DNA of 64,000 nucleotides. It comes from Anaerolineales bacterium (lineage in GTDB: Bacteria; Chloroflexota; Anaerolineae; Anaerolineales; UBA11858). The stretch lies in contig JAWODY010000074.1 in NCBI GenBank assembly GCA_046483045.1, positions 6,391 through 70,390 on the forward strand, written 5' to 3'. Below the pieces are notes generated by a model. The model was not told where the DNA came from. It saw only the letters and a program-made list of their open reading frames with translations, and did no database searches. Within the stretch, counting starts at the first letter, position 1. Each line of letters starts with the position of its first letter. Shown one piece after another: positions 33,184 to 48,916 of the stretch. Position numbers and translations under genes: made by a program.

Positions 33184-34163
33184 CCAATCACAATATACAA
33201 CCTGAATTAAATGAATATCTCAAAGCTCTCAAAGAAAAAGTGCCGCAGCGCGACCCAGAAATGGCAGCCAAGGGGCGGGCTAATTTTCTTTCGGAAGTGA
33301 AAGAACTCCAAGCGAAGAAATCAACCCCCTGGTTGGCTGAAATTTTTGCAGCGATCTTCTCTTTGCCGATTCAGGCCAACCGGCGTCTGGCAACCGCTGT
33401 CGCCAGCATTCTCACCGCGATCGTTCTTACTTTCGGGGCAGTGGGGGGAACGGTGTATGCCTCTCAGGACAGCCTGCCAAAACAAACACTTTACGCTGTA
33501 AAAACACTCACCGAAGATATCAGGCTCAGATTTTCAAAACAACCGGAAGAAAAAATTAGATTACTGGAAAAGTTTGCCAATCGAAGGGTAGAAGAACTAT
33601 CCGCGCTTTCAGAGAAAGAAGAAGAATTTCCCGAGGAGACGATTACTCGCCTGGAGCAGCATACAGAAACCATACTTAAGATAGCTTCTAAACAGGAAGG
33701 AAAAGAGTTGACCCAATCATTGAAAAAAATCCGGAAGTCTCTCCAAGCACAGGAAGAGATCATATCCAAACTGGCAAACATGGAGCATGGAAATGCTGAC
33801 AAGAAACTAACGCAGGTGCAGAAAAAACTACGGGAAAAAATCCATCTTGCTGAGGAAGGCCTGGACAATCCAGCTGCTTTTCGAAAGAAAATGAAGAGCA
33901 CAACACCTTTCACCCCGGTAGAGACCCTAAAACCCGGGAAACCAGAAGAAACTAGGACGCCTGAAAATAAGCGGAAACCGGTTGACCGCGGCACCCCAAT
34001 TTGGAAAGGAAAACCTGACCAGGTTGGCACGCCAGATCATAAAGGGAAACCGGGAGAGGCTGGACAACAGGAGAACAAGGGGAAACCAAACGAGCCAGGC
34101 TCACCAGATGACAAAGGGAAACCTGAAGATCCGGGTCCGCCGGATGATAAAAGAGGACCATGA
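33180..34163 (+). CDS. Single-pass membrane protein, DUF5667-like ectodomain, putative anti-sigma/sensor partner, with GKP-repeat tail
   Basis: ATGA overlap with the sigma gene. It has a cytoplasmic N-terminus of about 70 aa, TM 'LATAVASILTAIVLTFGAVGG', 'SQDSLPKQTLYAVKTLTEDIRLRF' and a helical region. The C-terminal tail carries four 12-aa repeats starting GKP. Confidence 0.65.
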   Translation: MTNHNIQPELNEYLKALKEKVPQRDPEMAAKGRANFLSEVKELQAKKSTPWLAEIFAAIFSLPIQANRRLATAVASILTAIVLTFGAVGGTVYASQDSLPKQTLYAVKTLTEDIRLRFSKQPEEKIRLLEKFANRRVEELSALSEKEEEFPEETITRLEQHTETILKIASKQEGKELTQSLKKIRKSLQAQEEIISKLANMEHGNADKKLTQVQKKLREKIHLAEEGLDNPAAFRKKMKSTTPFTPVETLKPGKPEETRTPENKRKPVDRGTPIWKGKPDQVGTPDHKGKPGEAGQQENKGKPNEPGSPDDKGKPEDPGPPDDKRGP

Positions 34164-34501
34164 GAAGAGAACGACCATAATTTTAAGCAAATTTACGAAA
34201 TTCATATTAGACATATAACCTCTCAGCCTACAAACTACCCCATCTATTCCATCCTCCTATAACCTCCTCAGAATCAGGAAGATTCTCCTGAGGGTGAATG
34301 GCAGCGTTACCTCAAAATGCTTCCTGGCTCCACGCCTATCCTTTGATAACCAAATATTCGCCTTCTCCTCAAAACCACCATCTCAACCTTAAAAAATTCA
34401 GATATTTAACAAACACCCGTAACAATCTGGTCTTTTTCGCGTCATATAGAGTGAAAGAAAGTCAGAAAAAAGGGAATTTAAGTCCAAAACCAGGAAAAAT
34501 A

Positions 34502-35446
34502 ATGGCTGAAGAAAGGAAATACCCGATATTAAATGAATATTTTGAGGCTCTAAAAGAAAAAGCTCCTCAGCGTGATGCAGAGCAAGCCGCTAAAGGGCGG
34601 ACCCATTTCCTGGCGGAAGCGAAGAGCCTGCAAAAACCCCAATCGACATCCTGGTTAGCGGACTTCCGAAAGACGCTTGCTTCCCTACAAATCAGGGGCA
34701 ATCGCCGTTTAGCCACCGCTGTCGCCAGCGTTTTGATTGCTCTAATCATCACCCTGGGGTCCGTTGGAGGAACTGTATACGCTTCCCAAGACAGCTTGCC
34801 AACTCAAACCCTTTACGCTGTAAAGACATTAACTGAGGATATACAACTGCGATTTGCAGATCAGGCCCAGGAGAAAATTGACCTCCTGGAAAAATTCACG
34901 AACCGCCGCGTTGATGAAGTGACCGCATTGGCCGAACGGGGCGAGGATATCCCCCAAGATACGATCTCTCGTTTTGAACAGCACACAGAGACCATGCTGC
35001 AGCTCTCCGCGGAATTAGAGGATGAAGATCAAGCCCAAACGCTTTCCCATATTCGCAACGCGCTGCAAGTTCATGAAGAAGTCATTCAAAAGCTCGCCGA
35101 GCGAGAATCGGGGAAAGCGGGAGAAGCGCTGCGTATGGTCCAGGGAAGGTTGCAGTCACAGATACAACGCATCGAAGAAGGAATGCTGGACCCAACCACT
35201 TTTCAAGAGAACAATCAAGATCAGAATCCCTTCAAGCCATTCGAAACCCCTCCGTCCGGAAAGCCTGAAAATATTGGACCGCCCGAAGAAAAAGGGAAGC
35301 CGGATGGGGTTGGCACACCGGACCACAAAGGCAAACCGGAGGACGCCGGCACACCAGAGAGCAAAAAGGGTCCAGAAAGTGACCCCCCTGATGGCAATGG
35401 ACCTCCCGATGAGGTTGATCCTCCAGCCGGCGGAGGAAAACCATAA
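34502..35446 (+). CDS. Paralog of 33180..34163 (DUF5667-like membrane protein with GKP-repeat tail)
   Basis: From ATG 34502 (MAEERKYPILNEYFEALKEKAPQRD...) it is collinear with the upstream paralog. Shared runs include 'NRRLATAVAS', 'GGTVYASQDSLP', 'QTLYAVKTLTEDI' and 'EQHTET'. Confidence 0.65.
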   Translation: MAEERKYPILNEYFEALKEKAPQRDAEQAAKGRTHFLAEAKSLQKPQSTSWLADFRKTLASLQIRGNRRLATAVASVLIALIITLGSVGGTVYASQDSLPTQTLYAVKTLTEDIQLRFADQAQEKIDLLEKFTNRRVDEVTALAERGEDIPQDTISRFEQHTETMLQLSAELEDEDQAQTLSHIRNALQVHEEVIQKLAERESGKAGEALRMVQGRLQSQIQRIEEGMLDPTTFQENNQDQNPFKPFETPPSGKPENIGPPEEKGKPDGVGTPDHKGKPEDAGTPESKKGPESDPPDGNGPPDEVDPPAGGGKP

Positions 35447-35533: not shown

Positions 35534-36313
35534 ATGAAACACAATAGGCACATTCTCACCAGTTTTATGCTCATCTTAACCCTACTGCTCACAGGGTTCA
35601 CCAGCCGGGCCGTTCAAGCGGAAACCCCGGATGAGTACGAATTTTCGGGCATCGTGGAAACGGTAAGCGAAGATGGCTTCACCTTCCTGACTGAAGACGA
35701 CATTCTGATCTCCGTGAGTGCGATAGAAGAGGATGAAGGAAACTTCTTCTTCACGCTCACCGTGGGAGAGGAAGACCCCCTCACCATCTCTGTAGATGAA
35801 GATTTCGATTTTGGCGTCATCGAAGAGGGTGGCGAATTCGAACTCGAGGTCAAGTACAACAAAGAGACCGAGGAATGGACTGTATACAAACAAAAATTCC
35901 AGGAGCGGGAACGCGAAGAAGACGGGTACTTCTGCTCCGAGGACACTGAAGAGCAACATCCAGTAGCTTTAGCCATCGCCGAGAGCTATGACACGGATTA
36001 TGAATCCGTGATCGGAATGTTCTGCGAAGGACAGGGTGAAGAGGGCAGCGCCCGGACCGGATTCGGGCAGATCATGCTGGCCTACCAGACCGCGGGAGAG
36101 ACCGGGGGAACAGCTTCCGAGATCTTGAGTGAACGCGCGGAAGGCAAAGGTTGGGGGCAAATTTGGCAGGACCTGGATTTGATCGGGAAACCTGAAGACG
36201 CTGGAAAACCTGATCACGCCGGAAAACCTGACGATGTAGGGAAACCCGAAGGCGTAGGTAATGGAAAACCAGAAGGCGCCGGGCCCCCAGAAGAAGCGGG
36301 CCCGAAACACTAA
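35534..36313 (+). CDS. Exported acidic protein: beta-rich N-domain + shared about 60-aa domain + KP(D/E)xxG repeat tail
   Basis: Signal peptide 'MKHNRHILTSFMLILTLLLTGFTSRAVQA'. The central part is 'HPVALAIAESYDTDYESVIGMFCEG...GQIMLAYQTAG...GWGQIWQDLDLIG'. The tail is 'GKPEDAGKPDHAGKPDDVGKPEGVGNGKPEGAGPPEEAGPKH'. 'aaaggagaaag' lies upstream. Confidence 0.7.
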   Translation: MKHNRHILTSFMLILTLLLTGFTSRAVQAETPDEYEFSGIVETVSEDGFTFLTEDDILISVSAIEEDEGNFFFTLTVGEEDPLTISVDEDFDFGVIEEGGEFELEVKYNKETEEWTVYKQKFQEREREEDGYFCSEDTEEQHPVALAIAESYDTDYESVIGMFCEGQGEEGSARTGFGQIMLAYQTAGETGGTASEILSERAEGKGWGQIWQDLDLIGKPEDAGKPDHAGKPDDVGKPEGVGNGKPEGAGPPEEAGPKH

Positions 36314-36334
36314 TCAAGCATTGACGTAGATCTC

Positions 36335-36380
36335 TGTGAGAGGTGACGCTCTCTCGCCCATGGGGAGCGTTCCTCTCACA
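36335..36380 (+). promoter_or_regulatory. Long intergenic hairpin (possible attenuator or stabiliser) between two cluster genes
   Basis: The outer stem tgtgagagg/cctctcaca (9 bp) plus the inner acgctc/gagcgt (6 bp), with no U-tract. It starts 22 nt after the 35534..36313 stop. Confidence 0.4.
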
Positions 36381-36395
36381 ACACTTGAAACAACT

Positions 36396-36812
36396 ATGAA
36401 AAAGAAACTTTTCATTCTCGTTATCCTGATACTCATTGCGCTGACCGCTTGCGATAACTCACTCCAAAAAGCGACCCAGCAAGTCCTGGGCAAAGAGGAA
36501 CGCAACACACCGACTCCTCCTCCAACAGAGGAAGAAAATGAGGCAGAACAATCGGAAGAGGAAAAAAATACCTCTGCGTGCCCAGAAGAAGATCCACAAC
36601 CCATCGCTGTCAGTATATCCGAAAAATTTGACGTCTCTTATGAAAAAGTAATCGATTGGTATTGCGATGGTTACATTTTTGAAGATATCTTACTAGCTTT
36701 GCAAACGAGCAAAATGTCGGACGTGGAACCCGACACCTTGCTGAAAGAAATTGAGGCAAAAACCTGGGAAGAGATTTGGGATAACTTAGGGATCACGAAT
36801 CCTAAGGAATAA
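36396..36812 (+). CDS. Lipoprotein carrying the shared about 60-aa domain
   Basis: From ATG 36396: 'MKKKLFILVILILIALTAC' (lipobox), an acidic linker, then 'PIAVSISEKFDVSYEKVIDWYCDGYIFEDILLALQTSKMSDVEPDTLLKEIEAKTWEEIWDNLGI'. Confidence 0.7.
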   Translation: MKKKLFILVILILIALTACDNSLQKATQQVLGKEERNTPTPPPTEEENEAEQSEEEKNTSACPEEDPQPIAVSISEKFDVSYEKVIDWYCDGYIFEDILLALQTSKMSDVEPDTLLKEIEAKTWEEIWDNLGITNPKE

Positions 36813-36847
36813 TTAAACGAATCATAGATTAAAGGTAAAGGTGAAAT

Positions 36848-37051
36848 ATGAATGAGAAAGATACCCAAAAATACGAAGTGTCCCAACAAGAACTCATGGA
36901 ATGGTACAGCGGGGGAAGATCATTCCAAGACATCATGAAAGCCCTTCAAACCAGCCAGCTATCCAATATCCCGCCAAAAGAATTATTGACCCGCAGCATA
37001 AACCAGAGCTGGGAAGAGATTTGGAAAGAAATCGGGGTATTGCCCGCCTAG
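36848..37051 (+). CDS. Stand-alone copy of the shared about 60-aa domain (67 aa, no signal peptide)
   Basis: 'KYEVSQQELMEWYSGGRSFQDIMKALQTSQLSNIPPKELLTRSINQSWEEIWKEIGV'. 'aaaggtgaaat' lies upstream of the ATG. Confidence 0.6.
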   Translation: MNEKDTQKYEVSQQELMEWYSGGRSFQDIMKALQTSQLSNIPPKELLTRSINQSWEEIWKEIGVLPA

Positions 37052-37142: not shown

Positions 37143-37301
37143 TTAAGACCTGTCGTCAAGCATCTCCCGATACACAGAGATCTTTCTCTTCACGCGTCGG
37201 ATCCGGATAAAGAGTTGGAGTAAGTACCCCAAGATAAAACTAAAGATAACCGCATATCCAGCAATCATGTACTGATATGTATCCATGATTTCTAATCCCA
37301 T
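37143..37301 (-). CDS. ccmD: Heme exporter protein D-like small membrane protein (not in supplied ORF track)
   Basis: 52 aa: MGLEIMDTYQYMIAGYAVIFSFILGYLLQLFIRIRRVKRKISVYREMLDDRS. It has one TM helix followed by a basic stretch. 'aaaggagaagg' lies 5-15 nt upstream, and it starts 19 nt after the ccmC stop. Confidence 0.65.
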   Translation of the reverse strand: MGLEIMDTYQYMIAGYAVIFSFILGYLLQLFIRIRRVKRKISVYREMLDDRS

Positions 37302-37319
37302 GTAATCCTTCTCCTTTGT

Positions 37320-38018
37320 TCAACTCATCAATTCCAAGCGGAGTTTATTCATCATGGATTCTAGCTTTTCCAACCTGATCCGGTGCCAGAGCACATCCGA
37401 AAAGAGAACAGAAAACGTGAATAAACTGAAGAAAAATGTTATTTTCATAGACTCTGTCATGCTGAACCCTCCCCCCGCAGTCGGGTCACCAGCGCCGATC
37501 ACCACAGGGTGAATGGTGCGCAGCATCCGGATGGAAACAAATGTCAACGGCACACTGACAAAACAAAAGATCGCATATACCGCAGAGAATCGAGCCTTTT
37601 GTCGTGGTTCGTCAATAGCCTGACGCAGTAAAAAATAAGCCCCATAGATCAGCTCCACCACAGCTGCTGTGGTTAACCTGGGATCCCACGTCCACCACGT
37701 ATTCCAAATCGGCCTGGCCCAAATGGAGCCAGAAATAATGGCAATGAAAAAGAAAATAAAACTTATTTCAACACTAGAAAAACCAATCATGTCCCATATT
37801 TTTTCCCTGCTGAGAATATACATGACGCCCATGAGGGCTGAAACAAAGAACCCCAACATCCCCACCCATGCAGTAGAGACATGAAAATAAAACACTTTTT
37901 GGACAGCACCCATACTACGTTCCAACGGAGCATAGAAAAATACCAACAAAACAGCCGCCAAAAAACAAATAACGGTAATCCCATCCAACAGGGAAAGGAA
38001 ACGGGGTTTTTCTTCCAT
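37320..38018 (-). CDS. ccmC: Heme exporter protein C
   Basis: 232 aa polytopic protein with the Trp-rich motif 'WARPIWNTWWTWDPRLTT' and conserved His contexts. Confidence 0.9.
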   Translation of the reverse strand: MEEKPRFLSLLDGITVICFLAAVLLVFFYAPLERSMGAVQKVFYFHVSTAWVGMLGFFVSALMGVMYILSREKIWDMIGFSSVEISFIFFFIAIISGSIWARPIWNTWWTWDPRLTTAAVVELIYGAYFLLRQAIDEPRQKARFSAVYAIFCFVSVPLTFVSIRMLRTIHPVVIGAGDPTAGGGFSMTESMKITFFFSLFTFSVLFSDVLWHRIRLEKLESMMNKLRLELMS

Positions 38019-38699
38019 TTACGACCACTCCTCTACCACATATTCAAACAACATAACAGCGACTGCAGTAAATATCAGATCATAGACAATAATGACATTC
38101 AGCCAGGTCATGATCCATGGCCCTGGATATCCTTCTAAATAACCGATGCTCGCTTTCACCGCGGGGATCAGGATCGGGATCGTGAGAGGAAAAAGCAGGA
38201 TCGGAAGTAAGATATCGTGCGTTCGGGCCTGAACACTCATGGCAGCCAGAAGGGTCCCTACCGCAATATAGCCTATCGAACCCAATAACACCACCAGCAG
38301 GAAACCGGGGACTAACATGTTGACATTGAAAAGGACGCTGTAGATTGGGAGGACTATCACCTCAACTACCAGCAAAAATATTAAATTACCAAGCGCTTTC
38401 CCGACGTATAACGCGCTGCGATCTACAGGTGCCAATAATAAACCATCCAAGCATCCCCCCTCCCTTTCAGAAGCCATGGATCTATTTACACCCAATGTGC
38501 CGGCAAACGTAAATGTCACCCATAAAACCCCCGCTGTGACGGATTCTTGAGCCTGGACATCCAAATCCAGAGCAAAGTTAAATATGAGTATTACCAATAA
38601 AGAAAAAACCAGCATAGACGTAAGAATTTCCTTGTTCCGGGCCTCCCCAACCATATCCTTCCAAACCACCGTTATCACGGTCCTGAGGTAATTTCTCAC
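38019..38699 (-). CDS. ccmB: Heme exporter protein B
   Basis: 226 aa, six predicted TM helices, CcmB-like 'KD...E.R.KE' N-terminus. It abuts ccmC and overlaps ccmA by 4 nt. Confidence 0.85.
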   Translation of the reverse strand: MRNYLRTVITVVWKDMVGEARNKEILTSMLVFSLLVILIFNFALDLDVQAQESVTAGVLWVTFTFAGTLGVNRSMASEREGGCLDGLLLAPVDRSALYVGKALGNLIFLLVVEVIVLPIYSVLFNVNMLVPGFLLVVLLGSIGYIAVGTLLAAMSVQARTHDILLPILLFPLTIPILIPAVKASIGYLEGYPGPWIMTWLNVIIVYDLIFTAVAVMLFEYVVEEWS

Positions 38700-39412
38700 A
38701 ACCGCTCTCCCCCTCTCCTCCGGACAGCCTCCCGGTAAAACATCAGTAGTCGATCCATGTCTATTTTCTCTTCCTTTACAGAAGCCACGATCTTACCTCG
38801 AGAGAGGACATCAAACCGCGATGCCAGATTGGCAACCTGGGCTAAATCGTGAGAGGTGACAAGAACAATCCGGCCTTGTTCACTCATATGCAGAAGGACA
38901 TCGTTCAACATTCGCACGGAATCCTGGTCCAAGCCTGTGTGTGGTTCATCAAAAAGTAAAATTTGGGGTTCATGTAAGAGGGATCTACCCAGGGCTAAAC
39001 GCTGAACCATGCCCCGCGAAAATGTCCGCACTAGATCAGCGCCTCGGCGTTGCAAACCTACCATGTCCAAAACCTGTGTAGCCCTTTGTCGATAATCAGA
39101 CACGTTGTAAAGGCGGCCATAAAACCAGAGATTTTCCTCCGCTGTGAGATCGCCGTACAGCAGGGGTTGATGGGAGACAAACCCTAATCGTTCTCTAACC
39201 CAATCAGCCTCTTGGGGCAACTGAAAACCCGCGACACTCACCTCCCCCCCATCTGGACGGAAAAGCGACGACAGGATACGGAGGAAGGTTGTTTTACCAG
39301 ATCCATTTGGCCCCAAAAGGGCTACAAGTTCACCCTTCTCCACTTGAAAATCCAACCCGTTCAGGACACGTTTATGACCAAAACGCTTCCGGAGATTCCG
39401 CACTTCAATCAT
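38696..39412 (-). CDS. ccmA: Heme exporter ATP-binding protein A
   Basis: Walker A 'GPNGSGKTT', signature 'FSRGMVQRLALGR' and Walker B 'LLFDEP'. Supported by its position next to ccmB and ccmC. Confidence 0.85.
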   Translation of the reverse strand: MIEVRNLRKRFGHKRVLNGLDFQVEKGELVALLGPNGSGKTTFLRILSSLFRPDGGEVSVAGFQLPQEADWVRERLGFVSHQPLLYGDLTAEENLWFYGRLYNVSDYRQRATQVLDMVGLQRRGADLVRTFSRGMVQRLALGRSLLHEPQILLFDEPHTGLDQDSVRMLNDVLLHMSEQGRIVLVTSHDLAQVANLASRFDVLSRGKIVASVKEEKIDMDRLLMFYREAVRRRGGERL

Positions 39413-40757
39413 CCTGCATTTCCTTCTCTACAGACTCTCTCAGCCTGGCTTTTAATGTCTCCCGGCGGGAACGATACACGTTCTCCTGGATCTCGCCTTC
39501 AGCGTATAAATTATCTAAAGCGATGATCGCATCCGTAAGCTCTGCTTTGTCTTTGGAAACCTGATTTAAATCTGGATCAGGACCCTCATTTTCCAGCCGC
39601 TGATGATAAAACCACATTCCAATCAACAACAAGGCCCCACTTAAGACGCTGAAACCAATCAAAAAACTTTTCTGATCCTCAACCAAAACCAATTCTTTTC
39701 CTGGATCTGACTGTCCAGGAAGACCGGAAAGGGCAAAACGTATTTGTTCTCCGCGACGTACGTTTTCCGCCAAATACACATGTATGCCCCCCCCCTGGAC
39801 TTCCCGGATACCCATGTCCTGTAAAAAGGTTCCCTGGACATCCACGCCCTGGGCAGGCGTCATGATCTCCACTGAGCCTACAGGTAAATTCGTTTTCTGT
39901 GTAAATTCAAGATGGTTGTCCTTATATGGGATATCAAAAAACACGGTGGTTTGATACACACCGGACCCTGGAGGGACACTCATCGTATCACCAAAACCAT
40001 TCTCCGTGAACACATAACGTTCCCCCAAGGAACCCGACTCGAACTTTATATTCTGCGCTCCTTCCGGCAAAGGAAAGTCAAGGACAGGCTCTCCTTTTTT
40101 CTCAGAAACAACCGTTTTAGGGCCAAAATTTGAAACGATAAACATTTCCCCAAACTTAACTAGAGCTTGATCGGAAAAGTTCACAAAGATATGCAAACTT
40201 TCCACGGATAATGACCCCTGATCTGTGGTCGTTCCATAAACCTGTATTTGAAGGTCAAGCGTTTTGTTGTCTGATTTTAGTTGGACAACATCCGAACGAT
40301 ACGTCGCTCCTTGATACACAAGGGAGGCGAAATAATGTAACCCCGGTTTCAAAGGCACCGAAGGGAACGTGATCTTACCATCCTCTTTTAGCGGGAGAGA
40401 TTGAACATAGACCTGAGTCATATGGTCATAACCCTCTAATTTCACCCGCAGGTCTGGCGCCAGGTTTTCGTCTTCCCGTTGATCAACAACGGTAACCATC
40501 ACGTTTCCGAGCCACTCCTCTCGGGTCGGTTCGGGTGTGGATTCGGATAGTGGAATTGGCCTCTGGTTTGGAATCAGTGATCCTCTCTGTCCCTCCAGGT
40601 GACGAGAGGGGAATTCCACTAAAACTTTCCCTAAAGGAGACCTGGTATATTTTAAGAATGGTGTGGTCGTTGGGTAAGAGGAAAGCCCACCCCACATACC
40701 CATGTAGAGGGCATGTAATGAAATCAAGACGAACCACCCAGCCTTTGCCACATTCAT
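39405..40757 (-). CDS. Hypothetical bitopic membrane protein inside the ccm operon (large beta-rich ectodomain, cytoplasmic CcmI-like helix)
   Basis: The ATG at 40757 overlaps the upstream stop (ATGA). It has an N-terminal TM, a Thr/Val-rich domain of about 330 aa, a second TM 'FLIGFSVLSGALLLIGMWFY', then 'DKAELTDAIIALDNLYAEGEIQENVYRSRRETLKARL'. Confidence 0.6.
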   Translation of the reverse strand: MNVAKAGWFVLISLHALYMGMWGGLSSYPTTTPFLKYTRSPLGKVLVEFPSRHLEGQRGSLIPNQRPIPLSESTPEPTREEWLGNVMVTVVDQREDENLAPDLRVKLEGYDHMTQVYVQSLPLKEDGKITFPSVPLKPGLHYFASLVYQGATYRSDVVQLKSDNKTLDLQIQVYGTTTDQGSLSVESLHIFVNFSDQALVKFGEMFIVSNFGPKTVVSEKKGEPVLDFPLPEGAQNIKFESGSLGERYVFTENGFGDTMSVPPGSGVYQTTVFFDIPYKDNHLEFTQKTNLPVGSVEIMTPAQGVDVQGTFLQDMGIREVQGGGIHVYLAENVRRGEQIRFALSGLPGQSDPGKELVLVEDQKSFLIGFSVLSGALLLIGMWFYHQRLENEGPDPDLNQVSKDKAELTDAIIALDNLYAEGEIQENVYRSRRETLKARLRESVEKEMQDD

Positions 40758-41236
40758 GACGCCAATCTTTCTCCACACTGGACACAGTATTGATCAGAAG
40801 TTCCCACAACATGGCCGCAGTGAGGGCAAAATTTGTATTTCTTGCTGCCTAATTTGCGGCGCCGGGAAGCGATCAAGGTTTCAATCTCATCGACCTCCGT
40901 TCTGGGAGGGGATTTTTTGATCGCCTCACCAGATAGGGGTTTCCTTTCAATCTGCTGCTTTTCTTTTAACTCATCGATTTTTTTAACGATTAGGGCTGCT
41001 TTTTTTACCAAGGTTTGGCGGGCTCTTTGATAATCTTTGGGGGCAATTTTTTCCAGCTCGTAATCAAAATCTAACTCCTCAATACGTTTGTACATCCGCT
41101 CCCGTTCAGCCTGAAGCCTGGATAACTCACACTCCTCCTCTGACACATACGTCTCCTGATCAAAAAAGGGTTGGCTGACAAATACAGCTACCAACAACAT
41201 AATGCTGAGGAGGACTAAAATTGAACCGACATCCAT
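40754..41236 (-). CDS. Hypothetical membrane protein with CcmI-N-like helix and C-terminal zinc ribbon
   Basis: GAGGTG lies 8 nt before ATG 41236. The order is TM 'ILVLLSIMLLVAVFV', then 'RMYKRIEELDFDYELEKIAPKDYQRARQTLVKKA', then 'CPHCGHVVGTSDQYCVQCG'. Confidence 0.6.
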   Translation of the reverse strand: MDVGSILVLLSIMLLVAVFVSQPFFDQETYVSEEECELSRLQAERERMYKRIEELDFDYELEKIAPKDYQRARQTLVKKAALIVKKIDELKEKQQIERKPLSGEAIKKSPPRTEVDEIETLIASRRRKLGSKKYKFCPHCGHVVGTSDQYCVQCGERLAS

Positions 41237-41260
41237 TTCAAAGCACCTCAAATTCTGATC

Positions 41261-41776
41261 TCATTTTTTTTCCAGAAGAGGATCAAGAGTGGATTTGATA
41301 TCTTCCAGGGAACGAAACGGCCCGATCTGCCTGTGGTAGATTTCACCGTTCCGGTCGATGATGTAGGTTTCCGGGACGCCGCGAATGCGAAAGGCCTGAG
41401 AAATATCTGTGCGCCTGTCCGGGCCGTTTGGATATGTGATTTCAAATTGTTCAATGTACTCTCTTGCTGCAGGCTCAGTATCCACATAATCCACACCCAA
41501 GAAGATTACATCTTCTCGAGATCGATAATCCCGCCAAGCCTGCTCTAAATCCTTGGCTTCGGGCTTACATGATTCGCACCAGGAAGACCAGAAATTTACA
41601 ACTACCACCTTCCCTCCCAGCTCCTGCAAATGAAACGTTTCCCCAGAGAATGTTGTCAATTTGAAATCAGGCGCTTTCTCACCTACCCCGATCTGACCTT
41701 GCTGTGTCCTTATCAAACCAAGTGCAAGGATCGTCAAGAGCAGCACCAATCCTCCCCAAAGCAACCACTTTTTCAT
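41261..41776 (-). CDS. ccmG: Thiol:disulfide interchange protein (CcmG/DsbE/ResA-type thioredoxin)
   Basis: N-terminal membrane anchor and 'VVVVNFWSSWCESCKPE' CxxC thioredoxin fold, in ccm context. Confidence 0.85.
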   Translation of the reverse strand: MKKWLLWGGLVLLLTILALGLIRTQQGQIGVGEKAPDFKLTTFSGETFHLQELGGKVVVVNFWSSWCESCKPEAKDLEQAWRDYRSREDVIFLGVDYVDTEPAAREYIEQFEITYPNGPDRRTDISQAFRIRGVPETYIIDRNGEIYHRQIGPFRSLEDIKSTLDPLLEKK

Positions 41777-41795
41777 ACGGTTTCCCTTACCCCTT

Positions 41796-42296
41796 TCACC
41801 TATTTTCTAATTCCTTCTCCACGCGAGAGATATATTCTTCCTCAATCCCTACCTCATCTTCCTGGACTTCCCTGGAATCAGGACGAGAGGACCTTCCGCT
41901 GATCTGCCATTTAGTAAATCCGCGATAAAGGGCATAGGCTCCTGCTAAGAATGCCAGTGGTGGGACGAGATAAACTAACCAGTTGAACCCTCGCTTTGGG
42001 GGCTCAGCCAAAACACGATCGCCGTATTCCTCGACAAAATACCCCTTGATTTCTTCCTCCGTCCAACCCTGCTGAAGCTTGTCACGGATCAACCCCCGCC
42101 ACTGCTCGCAGGCAGAAGTTCGACAGGCATCCAGCGGCGTGTTTTCACAAACCGGGCAGTAAAGCTGTTTGGCAATCACATTTACCTCATCATCAGGAGG
42201 AGTTGGCTCTTGAGCGAAAGCAGGGCTTGGGTACAACATGACCAAAACAAGCAAAACCAGGAAAACCCAGGCCCCAAGATGAATATGTATCTTCAT
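41796..42296 (-). CDS. ccmH: Cytochrome c-type biogenesis protein CcmH/NrfF family
   Basis: Signal peptide, 'QLYCPVCENTPLDAC', 'EEIKGYFVEEYGDRVLAEPP' and a C-terminal TM. It is collinear with the E. coli CcmH N-domain. Confidence 0.85.
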   Translation of the reverse strand: MKIHIHLGAWVFLVLLVLVMLYPSPAFAQEPTPPDDEVNVIAKQLYCPVCENTPLDACRTSACEQWRGLIRDKLQQGWTEEEIKGYFVEEYGDRVLAEPPKRGFNWLVYLVPPLAFLAGAYALYRGFTKWQISGRSSRPDSREVQEDEVGIEEEYISRVEKELENR

Positions 42297-44341
42297 CGTT
42301 TCCTCTTTTGGAGTGGCGAGGACACTTTGTGAACTCGATCCAACTCATTTTCCGGCCAAGCGGCAACCAGGATTCCGGCGATAAAGACCCAGCCTCCAAT
42401 CCAGAGCCAATTTACCAGAGGATTATAATAAATCTTAAATGTGGCCCCTTGCTCGGATATCTCTCGCCAATCGACCAGGATGACATATAGATCACCGGCT
42501 AAAGTGCTTTTCACCCCTGGGATCGTCATTGGTTGATTGGCATCATAGAAGTAATCCCGCCTGGGATATATCTCCGCTAATTCCTCTCCACCACTGCTGA
42601 CACCCACAACTGCCCGGGTCACATTCCTACCATCATGGGTATCAAATGACACCAAATCTTTGTACGTGATGGAATATTCACTCAGGGAAAGGCTCCCCCC
42701 TTCTGGAATCGTTCCCTGGGTTTCTACCTGGTACATTTCAATGCCAATCACGCCCAGAGCCATAAATATCACACCAATATGCACAATATAACCACCATAT
42801 CGCCGGCGGTTTTTTTTCGCCAGGCTGTAGAATGCAGTGAACACATTTTCCCCATGTGCTTTTATGCGAGCTGCGGCTCCCCTCCAAAATTCATATGCCG
42901 TAACAGCGAACACAAACCCTACCAGCCAAAAACCCAGTACCCCTTGCCAGCGCGTGATACCAGCGATATAGAGGACAGGAAAAGTTAGCAAAGAAAAAAC
43001 CAAAGGTTTCCAAACCGCCCGGCCCCATTTTTTTAGGGAGGAATATGTCCACGCAGTGAGCGGAGCAATCCCCATCAATAAAAGCAAGCCAGCAAAAAGA
43101 GGCCCTGTCGCTCGCTCGTAGAATGGGGGTCCCACCGTGACTTTCTGACCAGTGACAATCTCAGAAATAAGCGGGAAGAGGATTCCCCATAAAGTGGTCA
43201 CAAAAATGCCTAAAAAAAGCAAGTTGTTAAGGAGAAACAACGCCTCCCGCGAGAAAAGCGAATGAAGCTCATTGTTTGATTCTAAATCCTTCCAACGAGA
43301 TAACAATAACCCCAAAGAAACAGTTAAAGTCAAGGCAATGAACACAAAGAAAAGAGGGCCTATCGCGCTTTGAGCAAATGCGTGTACAGAAGACAGTACC
43401 CCTGAACGCGTGAGGAACGTACCGAAGACCACCAGGTCAAAGGTAAGGATGATCAAGACCAAGTTCCACCGCTTAAACATGTCTTTCTTCTCCTGGATCA
43501 TGACAGAATGCAGAAAGGCCGTCCCAGTCAGCCACGGCATAAAAGCTGAGATCTCTACCGGGTCCCACCCCCAGTATCCTCCCCAACCAAGGACATCATA
43601 TGCCCAACGTGCCCCCAGGATCAACCCCAAAGAAAGGAACAGCCAAGCCCAAAGGGTCCAGCGCCTCGTCAGGCATATCCAACGATCATCCGTCCGCCCT
43701 GTGACCAAAGCGGCAATTGCAAACGCGTAAGGGATGATAAAGGACACAAATCCTAAATACAACATGGGAGGATGAATGATCATGCCCGGATGGCGAAGCA
43801 GGGGATTCAGACCCTGACCATCACGGGGCACAAAAGGGACAGCCCCTTCAGGTCGGGCAAATGCCCGAACGATCCCTGTAGAAGTTTGCCAATAGCGGGA
43901 GAATGGATTTTCAAAGAATACATTTACGATGAGGAAAAAAGACAGCGTGACCAGGATGACTATGATCACCCAGGGCAAGAACTCCCGATCTCGTCCCCAG
44001 TCGCGCAGCGCAATGGCCGTGGCAAAGGCAGCCAACAGCCAGGACCAAAACACAAGCGAACCAGATTGTCCGCCCCAGAGTGCGGTTAATTTTAAGTAAA
44101 AGGGCATGCTCCGGCTGGTAACCTCAGAAACATAAGCAACCTGGTAGTGATGGGTTACCAATAAATACAGAAGGCTGAGGACAGGTACGGTCAATAAGGG
44201 AAACATCAAAGCCATGGATTGACGCGCGCTGTTGATCCACTGCTCATGTTGTGACCTTTGACCGTTAACCGCTGCTGCGATCCCGTAAAGGGCGACAATA
44301 AGTGTAATCAACAAGGTGCCAAATCCGATGTTCGCTACCAC
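42293..44341 (-). CDS. ccmF: Cytochrome c heme lyase subunit CcmF
   Basis: 682 aa polytopic protein with a WWD-like 'GGYWGWDPVE' and GTG start. It overlaps ccmH by 4 nt. Confidence 0.9.
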   Translation of the reverse strand: MVANIGFGTLLITLIVALYGIAAAVNGQRSQHEQWINSARQSMALMFPLLTVPVLSLLYLLVTHHYQVAYVSEVTSRSMPFYLKLTALWGGQSGSLVFWSWLLAAFATAIALRDWGRDREFLPWVIIVILVTLSFFLIVNVFFENPFSRYWQTSTGIVRAFARPEGAVPFVPRDGQGLNPLLRHPGMIIHPPMLYLGFVSFIIPYAFAIAALVTGRTDDRWICLTRRWTLWAWLFLSLGLILGARWAYDVLGWGGYWGWDPVEISAFMPWLTGTAFLHSVMIQEKKDMFKRWNLVLIILTFDLVVFGTFLTRSGVLSSVHAFAQSAIGPLFFVFIALTLTVSLGLLLSRWKDLESNNELHSLFSREALFLLNNLLFLGIFVTTLWGILFPLISEIVTGQKVTVGPPFYERATGPLFAGLLLLMGIAPLTAWTYSSLKKWGRAVWKPLVFSLLTFPVLYIAGITRWQGVLGFWLVGFVFAVTAYEFWRGAAARIKAHGENVFTAFYSLAKKNRRRYGGYIVHIGVIFMALGVIGIEMYQVETQGTIPEGGSLSLSEYSITYKDLVSFDTHDGRNVTRAVVGVSSGGEELAEIYPRRDYFYDANQPMTIPGVKSTLAGDLYVILVDWREISEQGATFKIYYNPLVNWLWIGGWVFIAGILVAAWPENELDRVHKVSSPLQKRKR

Positions 44342-44399
44342 ACGAAAACTCCATAGACCGACTTGATTAATAAATTCCTATTACGATTCCCCAGATATC

Positions 44400-44918
44400 T
44401 CATCCAGATTTTTCAGGAGAGACTTCTTCATATTTGGTGGGGCATTTCAGGAGAACTTCATCCGCGTAGAATACACCATCTAAAGTCATCTTTCCTGTGA
44501 TGATGGCCTGGGCTTCATGCACCAATAAATCCGGTTTAGGACCCTCATACATGACATCCAATGTCTCCCGATCAGGGTCATTCACAGCTTGATGCAAGGC
44601 AGCGGCTACACCGCCCTCAGCATTGAGGGCTACCTTTTTCCCCGGAACATGAGCAATCGTGAAGGTCAAGTTTAAATTTTCCATATCATATGCGATGCTT
44701 TCGCCAATCACTGCCCCGGATACACGCACGTTCCGATCATTTAATTCCCCCTGCTCATATTTCAAGTTTGTTTCCTCTACGGTGAGATAATACTGCGTGT
44801 TGGCTTTCGCGGAGGAAGCAATCAAATAAATCACCGCTGTCACAATCAGGATCCCCCCCACGATGAACTTAATCCGACCCCGATTTTTCATTTCCTTCAC
44901 AGCCATTTCTTCACCCAT
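44400..44918 (-). CDS. ccmE: Heme chaperone CcmE, CxxxY variant
   Basis: Membrane anchor plus OB-fold 'VRVSGAV...F.I......L.V.Y.G..PDL'. The C-terminal 'EVLLKCPTKYEE' aligns with E. coli 'EVLAKHDENYTP'. Cys (codon 44442-44444) replaces the heme-binding His. Confidence 0.85.
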   Translation of the reverse strand: MGEEMAVKEMKNRGRIKFIVGGILIVTAVIYLIASSAKANTQYYLTVEETNLKYEQGELNDRNVRVSGAVIGESIAYDMENLNLTFTIAHVPGKKVALNAEGGVAAALHQAVNDPDRETLDVMYEGPKPDLLVHEAQAIITGKMTLDGVFYADEVLLKCPTKYEEVSPEKSG

Positions 44919-45087
44919 GCTGAAAGCCCCATGATTACTTTACGCAACTCACGTTTCCTTGCTTGTCAAAATTTTCACATATTGAGATTAATAGAATATG
45001 AAAATCAGACGAATGGTATATGAAATATCCTTTCAGACTGGAGATTAACTCTTAATACCGATCCTTATGGGCCGCTCCAGGTAAAGA

Positions 45088-45978
45088 CTAGAGTTTATGC
45101 CCACAGACTCTACAATAACGATCGTTTTCTGCTGTTTTGCTTCCACACTGCGGACAAGAGGAACTCAACTCAGAGAAAACTGGCTCATGTGGTTTCGGTT
45201 TGCTTTCCAGACTTTCAGGAGGATTTCGTTTTTCACCAAACCACCAATAAATTCCAACTGCACCCAGTATGAACAGAAAGCCTAAACTACCCAGCAGCCA
45301 GGGGAGAAGATTCCAGCCCTGGAAAGAAAAAGATAGTTGGGGTTCAATGGGTTTACGGGGTTGGACTGATTGTCCCCCCATACTCAATGAATCAGAGGAT
45401 TTATGATATTTAATCTGGATATTCTGGCTTTCAGTTTCCTTCAATTGGGCTTCGCTCATCCTGAAATATTTTAAGCCGTCACTTCCCTGATAAGATTCCC
45501 CAAAAGGTGGTGATATATCCAGGTCATAAGCACCCCGAGGTTCTTGAACCTGGAACACAACCGAATTCACAGAGTGATTGCCCGGCCATGTATAAGTAAA
45601 TGTGCGCAGATTTCCCTCTTTTTTTAGAAGAGGGTCATAGTATTCAAATTGAACTTCATGAAACGTAGCGATAAAAGAGATCTCAGCGAATTCCCCCTTT
45701 AACACACGTTCATATTTAACAGACATTAACTTGTTATCAGGATCGCGAACAGCTACAGCATTGGGTTGGCCTGCTTCAGCAGGAATTTGAAATGTAACCA
45801 AAGCAGGCAGGGACACCTGGGATGACAAGACTCCCCGATAAATGATCAGGACACGAGGATCGTCGTACTCTGGCCAAATGTCAACCACCAGTTCATCAAA
45901 GGTTACCCCTTCCTGACCCTGTACCGGAAGGGGGAAGAGCATCAGAAACAGCACAATGACCAAAACCGCTTTTTTCAA
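45088..45978 (-). CDS. Hypothetical exported/bitopic protein with cytoplasmic zinc ribbon, first gene of the ccm cluster
   Basis: Signal peptide 'MKKAVLVIVLFLMLFPLPVQG', a beta-rich ectodomain of about 200 aa, TM 'LLPWLLGSLGFLFILGAVGIYWWF', and the C-terminal 'CPQCGSKTAENDRYCRVCG'. Confidence 0.6.
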   Translation of the reverse strand: MKKAVLVIVLFLMLFPLPVQGQEGVTFDELVVDIWPEYDDPRVLIIYRGVLSSQVSLPALVTFQIPAEAGQPNAVAVRDPDNKLMSVKYERVLKGEFAEISFIATFHEVQFEYYDPLLKKEGNLRTFTYTWPGNHSVNSVVFQVQEPRGAYDLDISPPFGESYQGSDGLKYFRMSEAQLKETESQNIQIKYHKSSDSLSMGGQSVQPRKPIEPQLSFSFQGWNLLPWLLGSLGFLFILGAVGIYWWFGEKRNPPESLESKPKPHEPVFSELSSSCPQCGSKTAENDRYCRVCGHKL

Positions 45979-46030: not shown

Positions 46031-46810
46031 TCAGCGTATCGCATCCCGCAACTGGTGCGTGAGTTCGATAAACCGGGTGGAATATCGAACTCCTTCTTCT
46101 CGGGGTCGGGGTAAATTCACCAAAAGATCCATCCGGAGGCGTCCGGGTTGGGGGCTGAACGCAAAAACACGATCTGCTAAGAAAACTGCTTCCGCTATAT
46201 CGTGGGTGACCATGACCACCGTCTTTTTACGAGCGCGCCAGATACGCAATAACTCATCTCCCATACGCTCCCGTGTCAATGCATCCAAGGAGCCAAAAGG
46301 TTCATCTAACAATAAAAGTTTAGGATCATGTACCAAACTGCGGGCAATGGCCACACGCTGAGCCATCCCACCGGACAGCTCCCGCGGCAGCCAGTCCTGA
46401 AATCCAGACAGGCCGACCAAATCAATCAACTCTTGTGACCGGTCTTCCATTTCGTTCCGGGATAGATTTGATGCTCGGTCCAATTCCAGAGGCAGAAGGA
46501 TATTTTCCAGCACCGTCCTCCAGGGCATAAGATTCGCATCCTGGAATACCATCCCCAGACCAGGACGGGGGCCCGTGACCCGTTCTCCTTCAAAAACCAC
46601 CTCGCCTATCGTGGGGGAAAGCAAACCCGCGATAATTCGCAGCAAAGTGCTTTTCCCACTCCCTGAGGGACCTACAATGCAAATGAACTCCTCAGGGAGG
46701 ACCCGGAAATGGATCTCGCGCAGGGCCTCCAAGGGTTCCTTCCCATCCAGAAAAGCTAAGCTGAGGTCATGGACCTCCAGTATCGGGTCTCTACTCTTTG
46801 ATGAATTCAT
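46031..46810 (-). CDS. ABC transporter ATP-binding protein (NitT/TauT family), riboflavin transporter candidate
   Basis: Walker A 'GPSGSGKST', signature 'LSGGMAQRVAIAR' and Walker B 'LLLDEP'. The start is probably ATG 46810, overlapping the SBP gene end. Confidence 0.85.
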   Translation of the reverse strand: MNSSKSRDPILEVHDLSLAFLDGKEPLEALREIHFRVLPEEFICIVGPSGSGKSTLLRIIAGLLSPTIGEVVFEGERVTGPRPGLGMVFQDANLMPWRTVLENILLPLELDRASNLSRNEMEDRSQELIDLVGLSGFQDWLPRELSGGMAQRVAIARSLVHDPKLLLLDEPFGSLDALTRERMGDELLRIWRARKKTVVMVTHDIAEAVFLADRVFAFSPQPGRLRMDLLVNLPRPREEGVRYSTRFIELTHQLRDAIR

Positions 46811-47783
46811 TTGTGTACATGGCTTCCACATTGATTGCGTCTTCGAGCAAACCCATATTTCTCAAGATCTCTACCATATTTTCCCAGGATTGATCTTCGC
46901 TCTTCCCATAAGGGTCTACCTGATAAAGATCTATGGATGTCCGCAGCACTTCCATTTGCACTTCCCGGTCAGCTTCCTCCAGCCCTTCCACATATCCATG
47001 AGTTATCTCGTACGCTTTTTCTGGGTTCTCTACTGTGAACTGGATGCCTTTCAAAGTCGCCTGCACCATATCGCGCACCAGATCTGGGTTTTCATTCAGG
47101 GTTTGCTGATTGGTAATCAATCCGTTCGAAACCAGCTGCACGTAATCAGCGACCGCGATGACATCAATATCGTAACCCTGGCTTCTGAGTTGGACTGGCT
47201 CATTCGCGAGATACCCGACGACAGCTTCAACTTGATCGCTGACCAAGGCTTCGACCTGATTGTAACCAATGGAATCCAGCCTAAGATCATTTTCCTTTAA
47301 CCCCACATAACCCAAGAGTGCGCGCAGACCAACGTAATTCGCGCCATATAATCCAGGCAAACCCACTGTGCGCCCTTCAAGGTCCTCCGGTTCCGTGATC
47401 CTCTGATCCTCACTGGCAATCACTGCGACCGGGTAATCCTTATACCAGGCCATCACGTAAACCACAGGGAGGTCTTTAGCCCTGGCCAGGGGAACCTGCT
47501 CACCTGAAACCACGGAAAAAGGGATCTCACCAGCTCCAACCAGGGCCAGGCCATCCGTTTCGCGTTTATAATCAAAGGTCACCTCAAGACCCACTTCCCG
47601 GTAATAACCTTTTTCCACAGCGACATAAAAAGGGGCAAACTGAATGTTGGGCACAAAACCCATAGGAAGCCTAATCTCCACCAATTCCGGTGAGGTTGGC
47701 TTGAATGCTTCTCGCTCAGCACATGCAGAAAGGACCAGAGTCATCATAAATATGACGATAACGACGTTCTTTTTCATATTCAT
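46791..47783 (-). CDS. ribY: NMT1/THI5-like substrate-binding lipoprotein (RibY-like)
   Basis: Lipobox 'LVLSAC' and 'LPMGFVPNIQFAPFYVAVEKGYYREVGLEV', typical of NMT1/THI5-type SBPs. It is under FMN riboswitch control. Confidence 0.75.
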   Translation of the reverse strand: MNMKKNVVIVIFMMTLVLSACAEREAFKPTSPELVEIRLPMGFVPNIQFAPFYVAVEKGYYREVGLEVTFDYKRETDGLALVGAGEIPFSVVSGEQVPLARAKDLPVVYVMAWYKDYPVAVIASEDQRITEPEDLEGRTVGLPGLYGANYVGLRALLGYVGLKENDLRLDSIGYNQVEALVSDQVEAVVGYLANEPVQLRSQGYDIDVIAVADYVQLVSNGLITNQQTLNENPDLVRDMVQATLKGIQFTVENPEKAYEITHGYVEGLEEADREVQMEVLRTSIDLYQVDPYGKSEDQSWENMVEILRNMGLLEDAINVEAMYTNEFIKE

Positions 47784-47799
47784 TCACTCCTTGGGTATC

Positions 47800-48612
47800 T
47801 TAAAAATGGCTTTCTGTCTTTTGCCATGAAAGAACATTTTTTTCTATTAATATAACTGCCCCATACAAAGCCAGGGCCATAAGTATTAACGCAAATACAG
47901 CCACAAAAACCAGGGATGTATCATACATTCCCCGGCCCACATTGACCAAGAATCCCAATCCCTGATCTGCCCCCACAAATTCCCCTACGACTGCTCCAAT
48001 AACCGAGAGGGTCGCTCCTACCCGCAGCCCACCCAAGAAAACAGGCAAAGCCGCTGGGATTTCCAGCAACCTCATTCGCTGCCAGGAATTAGCCTGCAGG
48101 GAATGCATCAAATCATAGAGTTCATCAGGGACAGAGCGGATCCCAACGATCGTGTTCACCAGGACCGGAAAAAATACGATCAAGGCGCTAATCAAAACTT
48201 TGGAAAACATGCCCGGACCCAGCCAGATCACCAACAGAGGGGCAATAGCTACGACAGGGATCGACTGACTGGCGACAATATAAGGTGCCAATATTCGTTC
48301 CACTACCCTCATTTTCGCCAGGGTATACCCGATAACAATCGCTGAACTTACGCCGATCAATAAGCCCATCAGAACTTCAGACAGAGTCACCCAGGCATGA
48401 AAGATCAAGCTGCCATCGGAAACAGAGATCAAAAAACGATCCCAAACCTGGCCTGGCGTGGGCAAAATAAAAGCGGGTACCTGGCTGTACTTCGTGAATG
48501 AAAACCACAAAGCTAAGGCAATCAAGCCAGAGGTAATAGTGAGAATAATCCTTCCCGCAGGCCTTACAAAGAAGGAGCGTTTGGATGACTGATAAAGGTT
48601 CTTTTGTTCCAT
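47800..48612 (-). CDS. ribX: ABC transporter permease (NitT/TauT family, RibX-like)
   Basis: 270 aa, six TM helices, with a BPD-type EAA-loop region 'SLQANSWQRMRLLEIPAALP'. It is the first gene after the FMN riboswitch. Confidence 0.8.
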   Translation of the reverse strand: MEQKNLYQSSKRSFFVRPAGRIILTITSGLIALALWFSFTKYSQVPAFILPTPGQVWDRFLISVSDGSLIFHAWVTLSEVLMGLLIGVSSAIVIGYTLAKMRVVERILAPYIVASQSIPVVAIAPLLVIWLGPGMFSKVLISALIVFFPVLVNTIVGIRSVPDELYDLMHSLQANSWQRMRLLEIPAALPVFLGGLRVGATLSVIGAVVGEFVGADQGLGFLVNVGRGMYDTSLVFVAVFALILMALALYGAVILIEKNVLSWQKTESHF

Positions 48613-48694: not shown

Positions 48695-48891
48695 AAATAA
48701 AAACCGAAAGCTGTACGCTTTCGGGGCAGATTCTCCCGCCATGACAAACACCAGGCAGAGGAAAACATGGTACCTTCTCCTGTCCGGACTATACCGTCGG
48801 CCCCGGAGTTTCACCGAATCCTGCGCCATTTCAGGCGCTCGCGGGCTTTACCGCCGATAGGGAATTGCTTTCGCTCACCCAACCCCGAAGG
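48695..48891 (-). promoter_or_regulatory. FMN riboswitch (RFN element) with terminator-type expression platform
   Basis: Minus-strand RNA: CCUUCGGGGUUGGGUGAGCGAAAGCAAUUCCCUAUCGGCGGUAAAGCCCGCGAGCGCCUGAAAUGGCGCAGGAUUCGGUGAAACUCCGGGGCCGACGGUAUAGUCCGGACAGGAGAAGG (48773-48891). This matches the RFN consensus blocks (CGGGG..GGGUG, CGGCGGUAAAGCCCGCGAGC, GAUUCGGUGAAA.UCCGG.GCCGACGGUAUAGUCCGGA..GAGAAGG). It is followed by hairpin CCGAAAGC-GUACA-GCUUUCGG plus UUUUUAUUU (48695-48726). Confidence 0.9.
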
Positions 48892-48916
48892 TTGAAAGTA
48901 TTCAATTTCCAAAAAA

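Follow-up and report, generated by a model that had tools for sequence, protein, structure and literature searches.

Three extra gene families in the System I* cytochrome c maturation operon of Anaerolineae: a candidate replacement for CcmI without a TPR domain

Introduction

In a 64,000-nucleotide stretch of DNA from an Anaerolineales bacterium (the window; positions are counted from its first letter), eleven co-directional open reading frames (ORFs) occupy 37143–45978 of the minus strand. Eight of them are cytochrome c maturation (Ccm) genes. The other three, here named A, B and C, belong to families whose database names are "hypothetical", "zinc ribbon domain-containing" or "c-type cytochrome", and our literature search found no paper mentioning these genes. 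The locus raises the question of what the three genes do inside a maturation operon, and whether they take the place of CcmI. We propose, at about even confidence, that B and C, optionally with A, may form a lineage-specific, non-TPR replacement for CcmI in the System I* of Anaerolineae. The proposal draws on the place of B and C within ccm in all related loci, on a likeness of B to the N-terminal module of CcmI, on modules common to pairs of the three proteins, and on their predicted folds and the lack of a TPR match in the operon.

Within the CcmFHI heme lyase, CcmI (also called CycH) serves as the chaperone of apocytochrome c. It corresponds to the C-terminal half of Escherichia coli CcmH and is a paralogue of NrfG. 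The holding of apocytochrome c and its presentation to the CcmF/H lyase are among the least understood steps of System I, and the need for CcmI itself varies: some bacteria cannot do without it, others can, and in many it is not detected. Within the CcmFHI complex, CcmI has two transmembrane (TM) helices joined by a cytoplasmic region and followed by a periplasmic TPR chaperone domain, and in Rhodobacter the membrane/cytoplasmic module and the periplasmic part have separate functions, according to work summarised in the same source (PMC3884852). In some systems CcmI is dispensable or missing (PMC3601427).

Results

B and C are kept inside the ccm operon

On the minus strand, the order of the genes is A-ccmE-ccmF-ccmH-ccmG-B-C-ccmA-ccmB-ccmC-ccmD. 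An earlier reading of the window, made from the letters alone (the sequence-only reading), had described these eleven genes in this order, and we recovered all of them where it had placed them. Ccm genes were assigned by Pfam and NCBIfam profile scans of the eleven ORF products, with the following result (E, expectation value).

45088–45978, minus: gene A, an ORF of 296 residues and an optional member
44400–44918, minus: ccmE, Cys-type heme chaperone (PF03100, E 7e-20)
44430–44444, minus: CPTKY motif of CcmE, residues 159–163; the C-terminal end reads ...LLKCPTKYEE
42293–44341, minus: ccmF, heme lyase (PF16327, E 2.8e-53; PF01578, E 1.5e-38; TIGR00353, E 1.8e-121)
41796–42296, minus: ccmH (PF03918, E 1.5e-22), with CPVC at residues 47–50
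41261–41776, minus: ccmG, ResA-like membrane-anchored thioredoxin (AhpC-TSA, Redoxin and Thioredoxin_8 matches), with CESC at residues 67–70
40754–41236, minus: gene B, 160 residues, start corrected to Met6, the sixth codon of the ORF
39405–40757, minus: gene C, 450 residues, start corrected to the ATG of the ATGA at 40757
38696–39412, minus: ccmA, ATP-binding cassette (ABC) ATPase (TIGR01189, 143.1 bits, cutoff 131.6)
38019–38699, minus: ccmB (PF03379, E 4.8e-30)
37320–38018, minus: ccmC (PF01578, E 3e-27)
37143–37301, minus: ccmD, alternative CcmD family, 52 residues (TIGR04391, 23.9 bits, cutoff 24, borderline)

The corrected length of C is that of a 100%-identical NCBI protein, P0001, from an Anaerolineales metagenome-assembled genome. 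Many of the junctions are tight. The start of C and the stop of B merge in an ATGA at 40757–40754 (minus), which can be read directly in the sequence; ccmF and ccmH overlap by 4 nucleotides (42293–42296), as do ccmA and ccmB (38696–38699), and C overlaps ccmA by 8 nucleotides (39405–39412). All four had been pointed out before and are confirmed here. Between A and ccmE lies an AT-rich spacer of 169 nucleotides.

We then compared the window with 89 related loci, whose taxon is Anaerolineae wherever the record names one. A total of 375 GTDB species representatives carry a C relative, and the best 80 of their loci (L010–L089) make up the genome loci of the sample; they include Bellilinea caldifistulae GOMI-1, Levilinea, an Anaerolinea species and Ca. 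Desulfolinea. Gene order was labelled by searching all six-frame ORFs of the 89 loci with profiles of the eleven window proteins. B-C lies directly upstream of ccmA in 89/89 loci and is preceded by ccmG, or by ccmF where ccmH and ccmG are missing. The order ccmE-ccmF-ccmH-ccmG-B-C-ccmA-ccmB-ccmC-ccmD was found in every locus long enough to show it, with the divergent loci L008 and L009 lacking ccmH and ccmG. The 4-nucleotide overlap of B and C recurs in 5 of the 6 locus types that were examined gene by gene, and the arrangement is retained on contigs whose homologues are as low as 29–34% identical. Sources of A, B and C homologues are labelled Anaerolineales or Chloroflexi wherever they are named.

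In the divergent lineage of L008 and L009, the genes read dsbA-dsbA-A-ccmE-ccmF-B-C-ccmABCD-ccdA-like (L008:1–11220). Here ccmH and ccmG are gone, while A, B and C remain among genes that are mostly Ccm or thiol-redox genes. In this lineage the ccmE product has 129 residues; the B product fits double-zinc-ribbon (DZR) models, with Zn_Ribbon_1 matched twice.

Gene A is less constant. Of the 80 genome loci, 28 have it, always in the slot directly upstream of ccmE; in 13 other genome loci an ABC ATPase gene abuts ccmE directly, with no A between. Because A occurs in this fraction of relatives only and is set off from ccmE by its spacer, we take the conserved core of the operon to be ten genes and A to be variable. 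The sequence-only reading had proposed a comparison of ccm loci, to be held against it if close relatives lacked the extra genes there. The three genes proved syntenic with ccm across the Anaerolineae in the 89 loci, A being optional, and since this holds for B-C throughout, the reading came through its own test. The association of the three extra genes with ccm is more than chance.

The operon is of the System I* type and encodes no TPR protein

The remaining eight genes make a coherent set. The CcmABCD heme-delivery module is complete, given that ccmD, with its borderline score, keeps its place after ccmC across the related loci. The CcmF lyase, CcmH and a CxxC-bearing thioredoxin-like CcmG are all present, although matches of the CcmG product to the ResA and DsbE subfamilies fall under their cutoffs. 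At the heme-binding position, CcmE has a Cys, in CPTKY, and not the canonical His, so the operon is a System I* variant of cytochrome c maturation. The same was seen in the relatives: among the 80 genome loci, 63 have CPTKY and one has CPSKY, and ccmE is of the Cys type wherever the motif can be read.

System I* is held by Desulfovibrio, some Firmicutes, Chloroflexi and archaea. The variant was defined by its Cys-type CcmE, as against the His of System I, with Chloroflexi named among its holders (PMC3601427). Apart from the extra genes, the operon of the window is an ordinary System I* operon. It differs from many System I* sets in that it keeps CcmH and CcmG, and from the published descriptions we found in that A, B and C form no part of them.

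In line with the sequence-only reading, which had listed no TPR-type CcmI, Pfam scans gave no TPR domain match in any of the eleven operon products. Since the TPR domain is the defining feature of CcmI, A, B and C are not classed as CcmI.

B has a sub-threshold likeness to the N-terminal module of CcmI

The product of gene B is short and consists of the following parts.

Residues 5–25, minus strand: N-out TM helix, with the short N-terminus outside the cell
Residues 55–76, 41009–41074, minus: cytoplasmic helix with the LDFDY...R..L motif, sequence LDFDYELEKIAPKDYQRARQTL
Residues 137–154, 40775–40828, minus: zinc ribbon, CPHC...CVQC

According to our profile scans, the zinc ribbon of B scores 26.3 bits with PF13240 (cutoff 25), and it is found in 75 of 78 B relatives. 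That of A scores 25.3 bits with the same model, so that both of the CxxC-N10-CxxC ribbons previously recognised behind a TM helix lie above the cutoff. The helix motif of B was detected in 32/78 relatives with a strict pattern and in 71/78 with a relaxed one. The sequence-only reading had given this post-TM motif to two of the proteins; it is indeed present in B and C, but in B the "G/K" position is shifted by one residue.

That reading had also likened the post-TM segment to CcmI. To assess this likeness, we used a B-family set of 123 diverse proteins from an exhaustive profile search and a C-family set of 42 proteins as a control for the effect of any TM helix followed by a SHOCT-like helix. 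Window B matches TIGR03142, the model of the CcmI N-domain, weakly, with E 0.02 over TM1 and the helix. In the family set, 45/123 members match this model at E≤0.1 (best E 3.7e-5), which makes it the top family other than zinc ribbons and the best functional family match of B; in the control, 0/42 did so. The N-termini of five annotated CcmI (from Pseudomonas, Rhizobium (two), Serratia and Klebsiella plasmid records) were aligned as a reference. Escherichia coli CcmH lacks the TM1-plus-loop module, was therefore unsuitable and was dropped. When B was compared with the five N-termini profile to profile (hhalign), the TM helix and the following helix aligned over 60–68 columns, with a probability of 51–74% and E between 3e-5 and 1.5e-4. 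The consensus of B in this region, ELDFDYxLGKIxxxDYxxxR, can be set against ELDREVETNQLGRNEYEYAR of Rhizobium; in both, an N-out TM1 is followed by a cytoplasmic amphipathic helix.

The reverse search agrees. A hidden Markov model of the five CcmI N-termini was run on the 24,510 ORFs of the 89 related loci, of which B ORFs are about 0.35%. Its 22 matches at E≤1 included 19 B ORFs, and its 67 matches at E≤10 included 44. An exhaustive search with the profile of the B N-terminus reached 981 clusters at E≤1e-10; among the 150 best matches listed, almost all are short B-like proteins, and one match is a protein of 635 residues aligned in its C-terminal tail.

The signal between B and CcmI is sub-threshold, yet it is consistent, specific and supported by gene context. 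For this reason we take B to be, with good probability, a homologous counterpart of the N-terminal module of CcmI. The likeness claimed earlier thus holds for B and does not extend to C by itself, for which direct comparison with CcmI by hhalign gave 9% probability.

A, B and C as a mosaic of shared modules

Genes A and C encode larger extracytoplasmic parts. AlphaFold2 (AF2) models of both proteins were obtained, with predicted local distance difference test (pLDDT) values of 83 for A and 81.5 for C. Their features are these.

A, residues 1–21, minus strand: signal peptide
A, residues 24–200, minus strand: all-beta ectodomain (AF2)
A, residues 224–247, 45238–45309, minus: TM helix
A, residues 275–292, 45103–45156, minus: cytoplasmic CxxC-N10-CxxC zinc ribbon, CPQC...CRVC
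C, residues 4–22, minus strand: N-terminal hydrophobic helix without a lipobox Cys, followed by a disordered linker
C, residues 82–175, minus strand: Ig-like beta-sandwich (AF2)
C, residues 183–344, minus strand: beta-sandwich like those of ribophorin I and the M1 aminopeptidase N-domain (AF2/Foldseek)
C, residues 362–390, minus strand: TM helix (AF2)
C, residues 404–449, minus strand: SHOCT-like two-helix cytoplasmic tail, with the motif at 39453–39518, sequence LDNLYAEGEIQENVYRSRRETL

Homologues numbered 55 for A and 204 for C. The zinc ribbon of A is found in 28/28 relatives. The tail motif of C is found in 58 of its 80 relatives, and the helix motif was not found in A.

Among A, B and C themselves, BLASTP gave nothing significant, and their relationships become visible only in profile-profile comparison. 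Judged by hhalign, the three proteins are a mosaic of modules common to pairs among them. Residues 10–91 of B, which hold the TM helix and the following helix, align with residues 364–445 of C (95%, E 2e-8); A and C share the membrane-proximal ectodomain and TM helix (95%, E 2e-8), and A and B share the zinc ribbon (96%). One motif noted previously did not fit this picture. The stretches VTFQIPAEAG and LDFPLPEGAQ, proposed to correspond as a shared "F-x-[IL]-P-x-[EG]-A", both exist, but a low-confidence alignment of the ectodomains alone does not place them in the same columns, and we do not accept their equivalence.

The ectodomains of A and C have a common fold, all-beta in both AF2 models, and neither Pfam nor NCBIfam holds a model for the ectodomains of the three extra families. 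When the AF2 models were searched against PDB with Foldseek, the best matches of both were to ribophorin I/Ost1 (E 2e-8 for C and 3e-7 for A), with the N-terminal beta-sandwich of M1 aminopeptidases also among the best. Both of these modules adjoin a polypeptide substrate. The design in common is one or two beta-sandwiches outside the cytoplasm, one TM helix and, in the cytosol, a helical tail. As the Foldseek TM-scores are 0.26–0.42, the likeness is architectural only, and we use it as an analogy; the partner enzyme and pathway of ribophorin I are unrelated. Pfam scans with the ribophorin I family PF04597 matched neither the window proteins nor the C relatives.

Two other matches were set aside as chance. 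One was PD-L1 (E 0.004) for the first Ig-like domain of C; the other was 8whn, a "ribophorin 1 superfamily" entry (E 0.05), for the helix of B, and it was not recovered in a single-sequence search restricted to the B helix. Searches of PDB sequences with the A, B and C profiles otherwise returned generic zinc-ribbon matches only.

SHOCT domains co-occur with double zinc ribbons, have no established function and were negative in an oligomerisation test (PMC3581485). In the present families, the tails of C relatives score at or near the cutoff of SHOCT (PF09851; 27.0, 24.8 and 24.6 bits, cutoff 27), and A and B lie above that of PF13240. The tail of window C itself had no SHOCT match at E≤0.1 in the Pfam scan.

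A diheme extension in many C relatives

In 50 of the 80 C relatives of L010–L089, the N-terminus is extended by about 200 residues with two CxxCH motifs; the C relative of L001 (L001:10001–11980) has a diheme domain as well. This extension matches models of CcoP, QcrC and class I cytochrome c with E 1e-13 to 1e-22, and going by this heme domain C is itself a c-type cytochrome in most lineages. A further 29/80 have no heme motif, including the clade of the window and the divergent L008 lineage; the L003 clade is also without it. The presence of the heme domain is uncorrelated with that of A across the 80 loci. In the window, CxxCH occurs neither in C nor in any ORF of at least 80 residues of the 64 kb, and hence no c-type cytochrome substrate is encoded near the ccm operon.

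These heme domains suggest that C could be a membrane-anchored, CcoP/QcrC-like diheme respiratory cytochrome of a cell that probably has no periplasm, with B as its membrane partner. The pair would then sit in the operon as a housekeeping substrate of Ccm and not as a factor of maturation, and the lineage of the window would have lost the heme domain. Monoderm bacteria tether cytochromes to the membrane by a lipobox and a C-terminal TM anchor, and the same combination is met here, the lipobox Cys being present in 68/80 C relatives and lost in the window copy. We consider this explanation unlikely, if a serious one. The 29/80 heme-less C proteins keep the core, the operon slot and many invariant residues, which points to a conserved function in the heme-less core. 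Moreover, B resembles a Ccm component, CcmI, and A has the same ectodomain fold, never has a heme domain and is tied to ccmE.

The same domains also allow a redox role within maturation itself, with B and C as accessory Ccm subunits. A diheme C would keep heme reduced, be it that of CcmE or the b-heme of CcmF, or would reduce apocytochrome thiols, while its beta-sandwich docks on the lyase. The diheme domain is indeed fused to a ccm-locked protein in most lineages, the gene lies between the lyase/thiol-redox genes and the heme-delivery genes, and the chemistry of System I* CcmE differs from that of System I (PMC3601427). However, window C and 29/80 relatives are without a heme motif, so a redox role cannot be common to all lineages. 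Apart from heme, C has no conserved redox motif: its invariant columns, with the block ...LGERYxxTxDGFGDTxSIPPGSGVYQ..., contain no Cys pair. We regard this role as improbable.

The core of beta-sandwich, TM helix and helix is kept everywhere and the heme domain is not. As judged from this distribution, the universal function of C must lie in the heme-less core.

Surroundings of the operon

On the far side of ccmD, an extracytoplasmic function (ECF) sigma factor gene and two genes for DUF5667 membrane proteins with Pro/Gly/Lys-rich tails (32635–35446, plus strand) converge with the end of ccm. In the close relative L005 this set again follows ccmD, but in distant loci it does not. These neighbours make it conceivable that A, B and C together serve signalling or regulation across the membrane, with ectodomains that would sense the outside and zinc-ribbon or SHOCT tails that would act on, for example, the neighbouring ECF sigma/DUF5667 set, translation or secretion. 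The cytoplasmic tails of all three proteins do have a zinc ribbon or SHOCT-like helices. We nevertheless give this idea only a slim chance, as the sigma/DUF5667 genes are absent at L001, L003, L008 and the other distant loci examined, where B-C is still inside ccm; in addition, the ribbons are not anti-sigma motifs of the ZAS type, and the translational coupling to ccmA speaks for a subunit made in stoichiometric amounts.

Between this set and ccmD, three small exported or acidic ORFs of 259, 158 and 67 residues (35534–37051, plus strand) have no Pfam match. They have a repeated C-terminal motif (...VIDWYCDGYIFEDILLALQTSKM... versus ...LMEWYSGGRSFQDIMKALQTSQL...) and, from this motif, may be a small paralogous family.

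Upstream of A, we found a flavin mononucleotide (FMN) riboswitch, RF00050, at 48768–48896 (minus, 87.7 bits), with a terminator-like hairpin at 48724–48704 (minus). Downstream of it lies an NMT1/THI5-type ABC importer (permease, binding protein and ATPase; 46031–48612, minus), which, judged by context, probably takes up riboflavin in the manner of RibXY. Only 52 nucleotides separate the end of the importer from A on the same strand, with no terminator predicted between them, and the order riboswitch, importer, (A), ccm was seen in 7/7 related loci checked. From this gene order, control of ccm by FMN through read-through is possible. In scans, promoter-like sites were as frequent as expected by chance (16, with 16.6 expected) and terminator-like sites about twice as frequent (28, with 15.1 expected); with these counts, the boundaries of the transcription units are tentative.

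Discussion

The place of B-C in the operon and the likeness of B to CcmI lead us to the reading given at the outset, in which B and C, with A where present, would do the work of CcmI. The three proteins would bind to the heme lyase CcmF/CcmH by way of their TM and cytoplasmic helices, and the TM-helix modules common to B and C would mediate this assembly. What CcmI does in the membrane and the cytoplasm (the "CcmI-1" role) would fall to B. In the "CcmI-2" role, C and A would use their beta-sandwich ectodomains to keep Sec-exported apocytochrome c beside the lyase, at the surface of the membrane. Complex formation, binding of apocytochrome and a need for A, B and C in holocytochrome formation are all what we infer from the locus.

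Several parallels with CcmI/CycH are consistent with such a division of labour. CcmI and B-C alike are encoded with ccmF, ccmH and ccmG, and C has a large domain outside the cytoplasm, held in the membrane by the module that it shares with B. There are differences too. A, B and C have no TPR domain and no second TM helix, and their sequence scores all lie under the curated cutoffs. The extracytoplasmic domain of C is all-beta and N-terminal to its anchor, cytoplasmic zinc ribbons have been added, and the function would be spread over two or three genes in Anaerolineae.

The following points weigh against a replacement of CcmI by these proteins. Every single B falls under the curated TIGR03142 cutoff, window B with 15 bits against 29.3, and the hhalign probabilities of B with CcmI go no higher than 51–74%. 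B has one TM helix, without the TM2 of CcmI and without a periplasmic domain, and C reaches CcmI only through B. The ectodomains of A and C, when compared alone, are weakly related (hhalign 24%, E 8.5e-4, 154 columns), and the Foldseek TM-scores are low. The CcoP/QcrC-like diheme cytochrome of the 50/80 C relatives is more suggestive of an electron carrier than of a chaperone. Finally, the absence of TPR and CcmI is a result for the eleven operon products only.

A more daring extension starts from the analogy with ribophorin I, which ties the oligosaccharyltransferase to the ribosome-translocon. As counterparts in design, the ectodomains of A and C might capture unfolded apocytochrome as it leaves the Sec channel while the zinc-ribbon and helical tails of A, B and C dock on the translating ribosome or Sec, so that heme ligation by CcmF would be coupled to translocation. 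To our knowledge, co-translocational maturation of cytochrome c has not been described before, and we rate this extension as a long shot.

If B-C acts as we propose, it would matter beyond the window, as the pattern runs through the class, with no fewer than 375 species representatives and roughly a thousand clusters of proteins. B-C is a concrete candidate for an alternative apocytochrome-handling module, and the compact operon of L008 and L009 offers a natural "minimal" version of it, a handle on which parts are needed. The context allows three large families to be named that now go under the uninformative labels quoted above, and it gives the SHOCT-like module a first functional context. 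The diheme fusion of C, in turn, provides a handle on whether some maturation systems may have a built-in electron supply.

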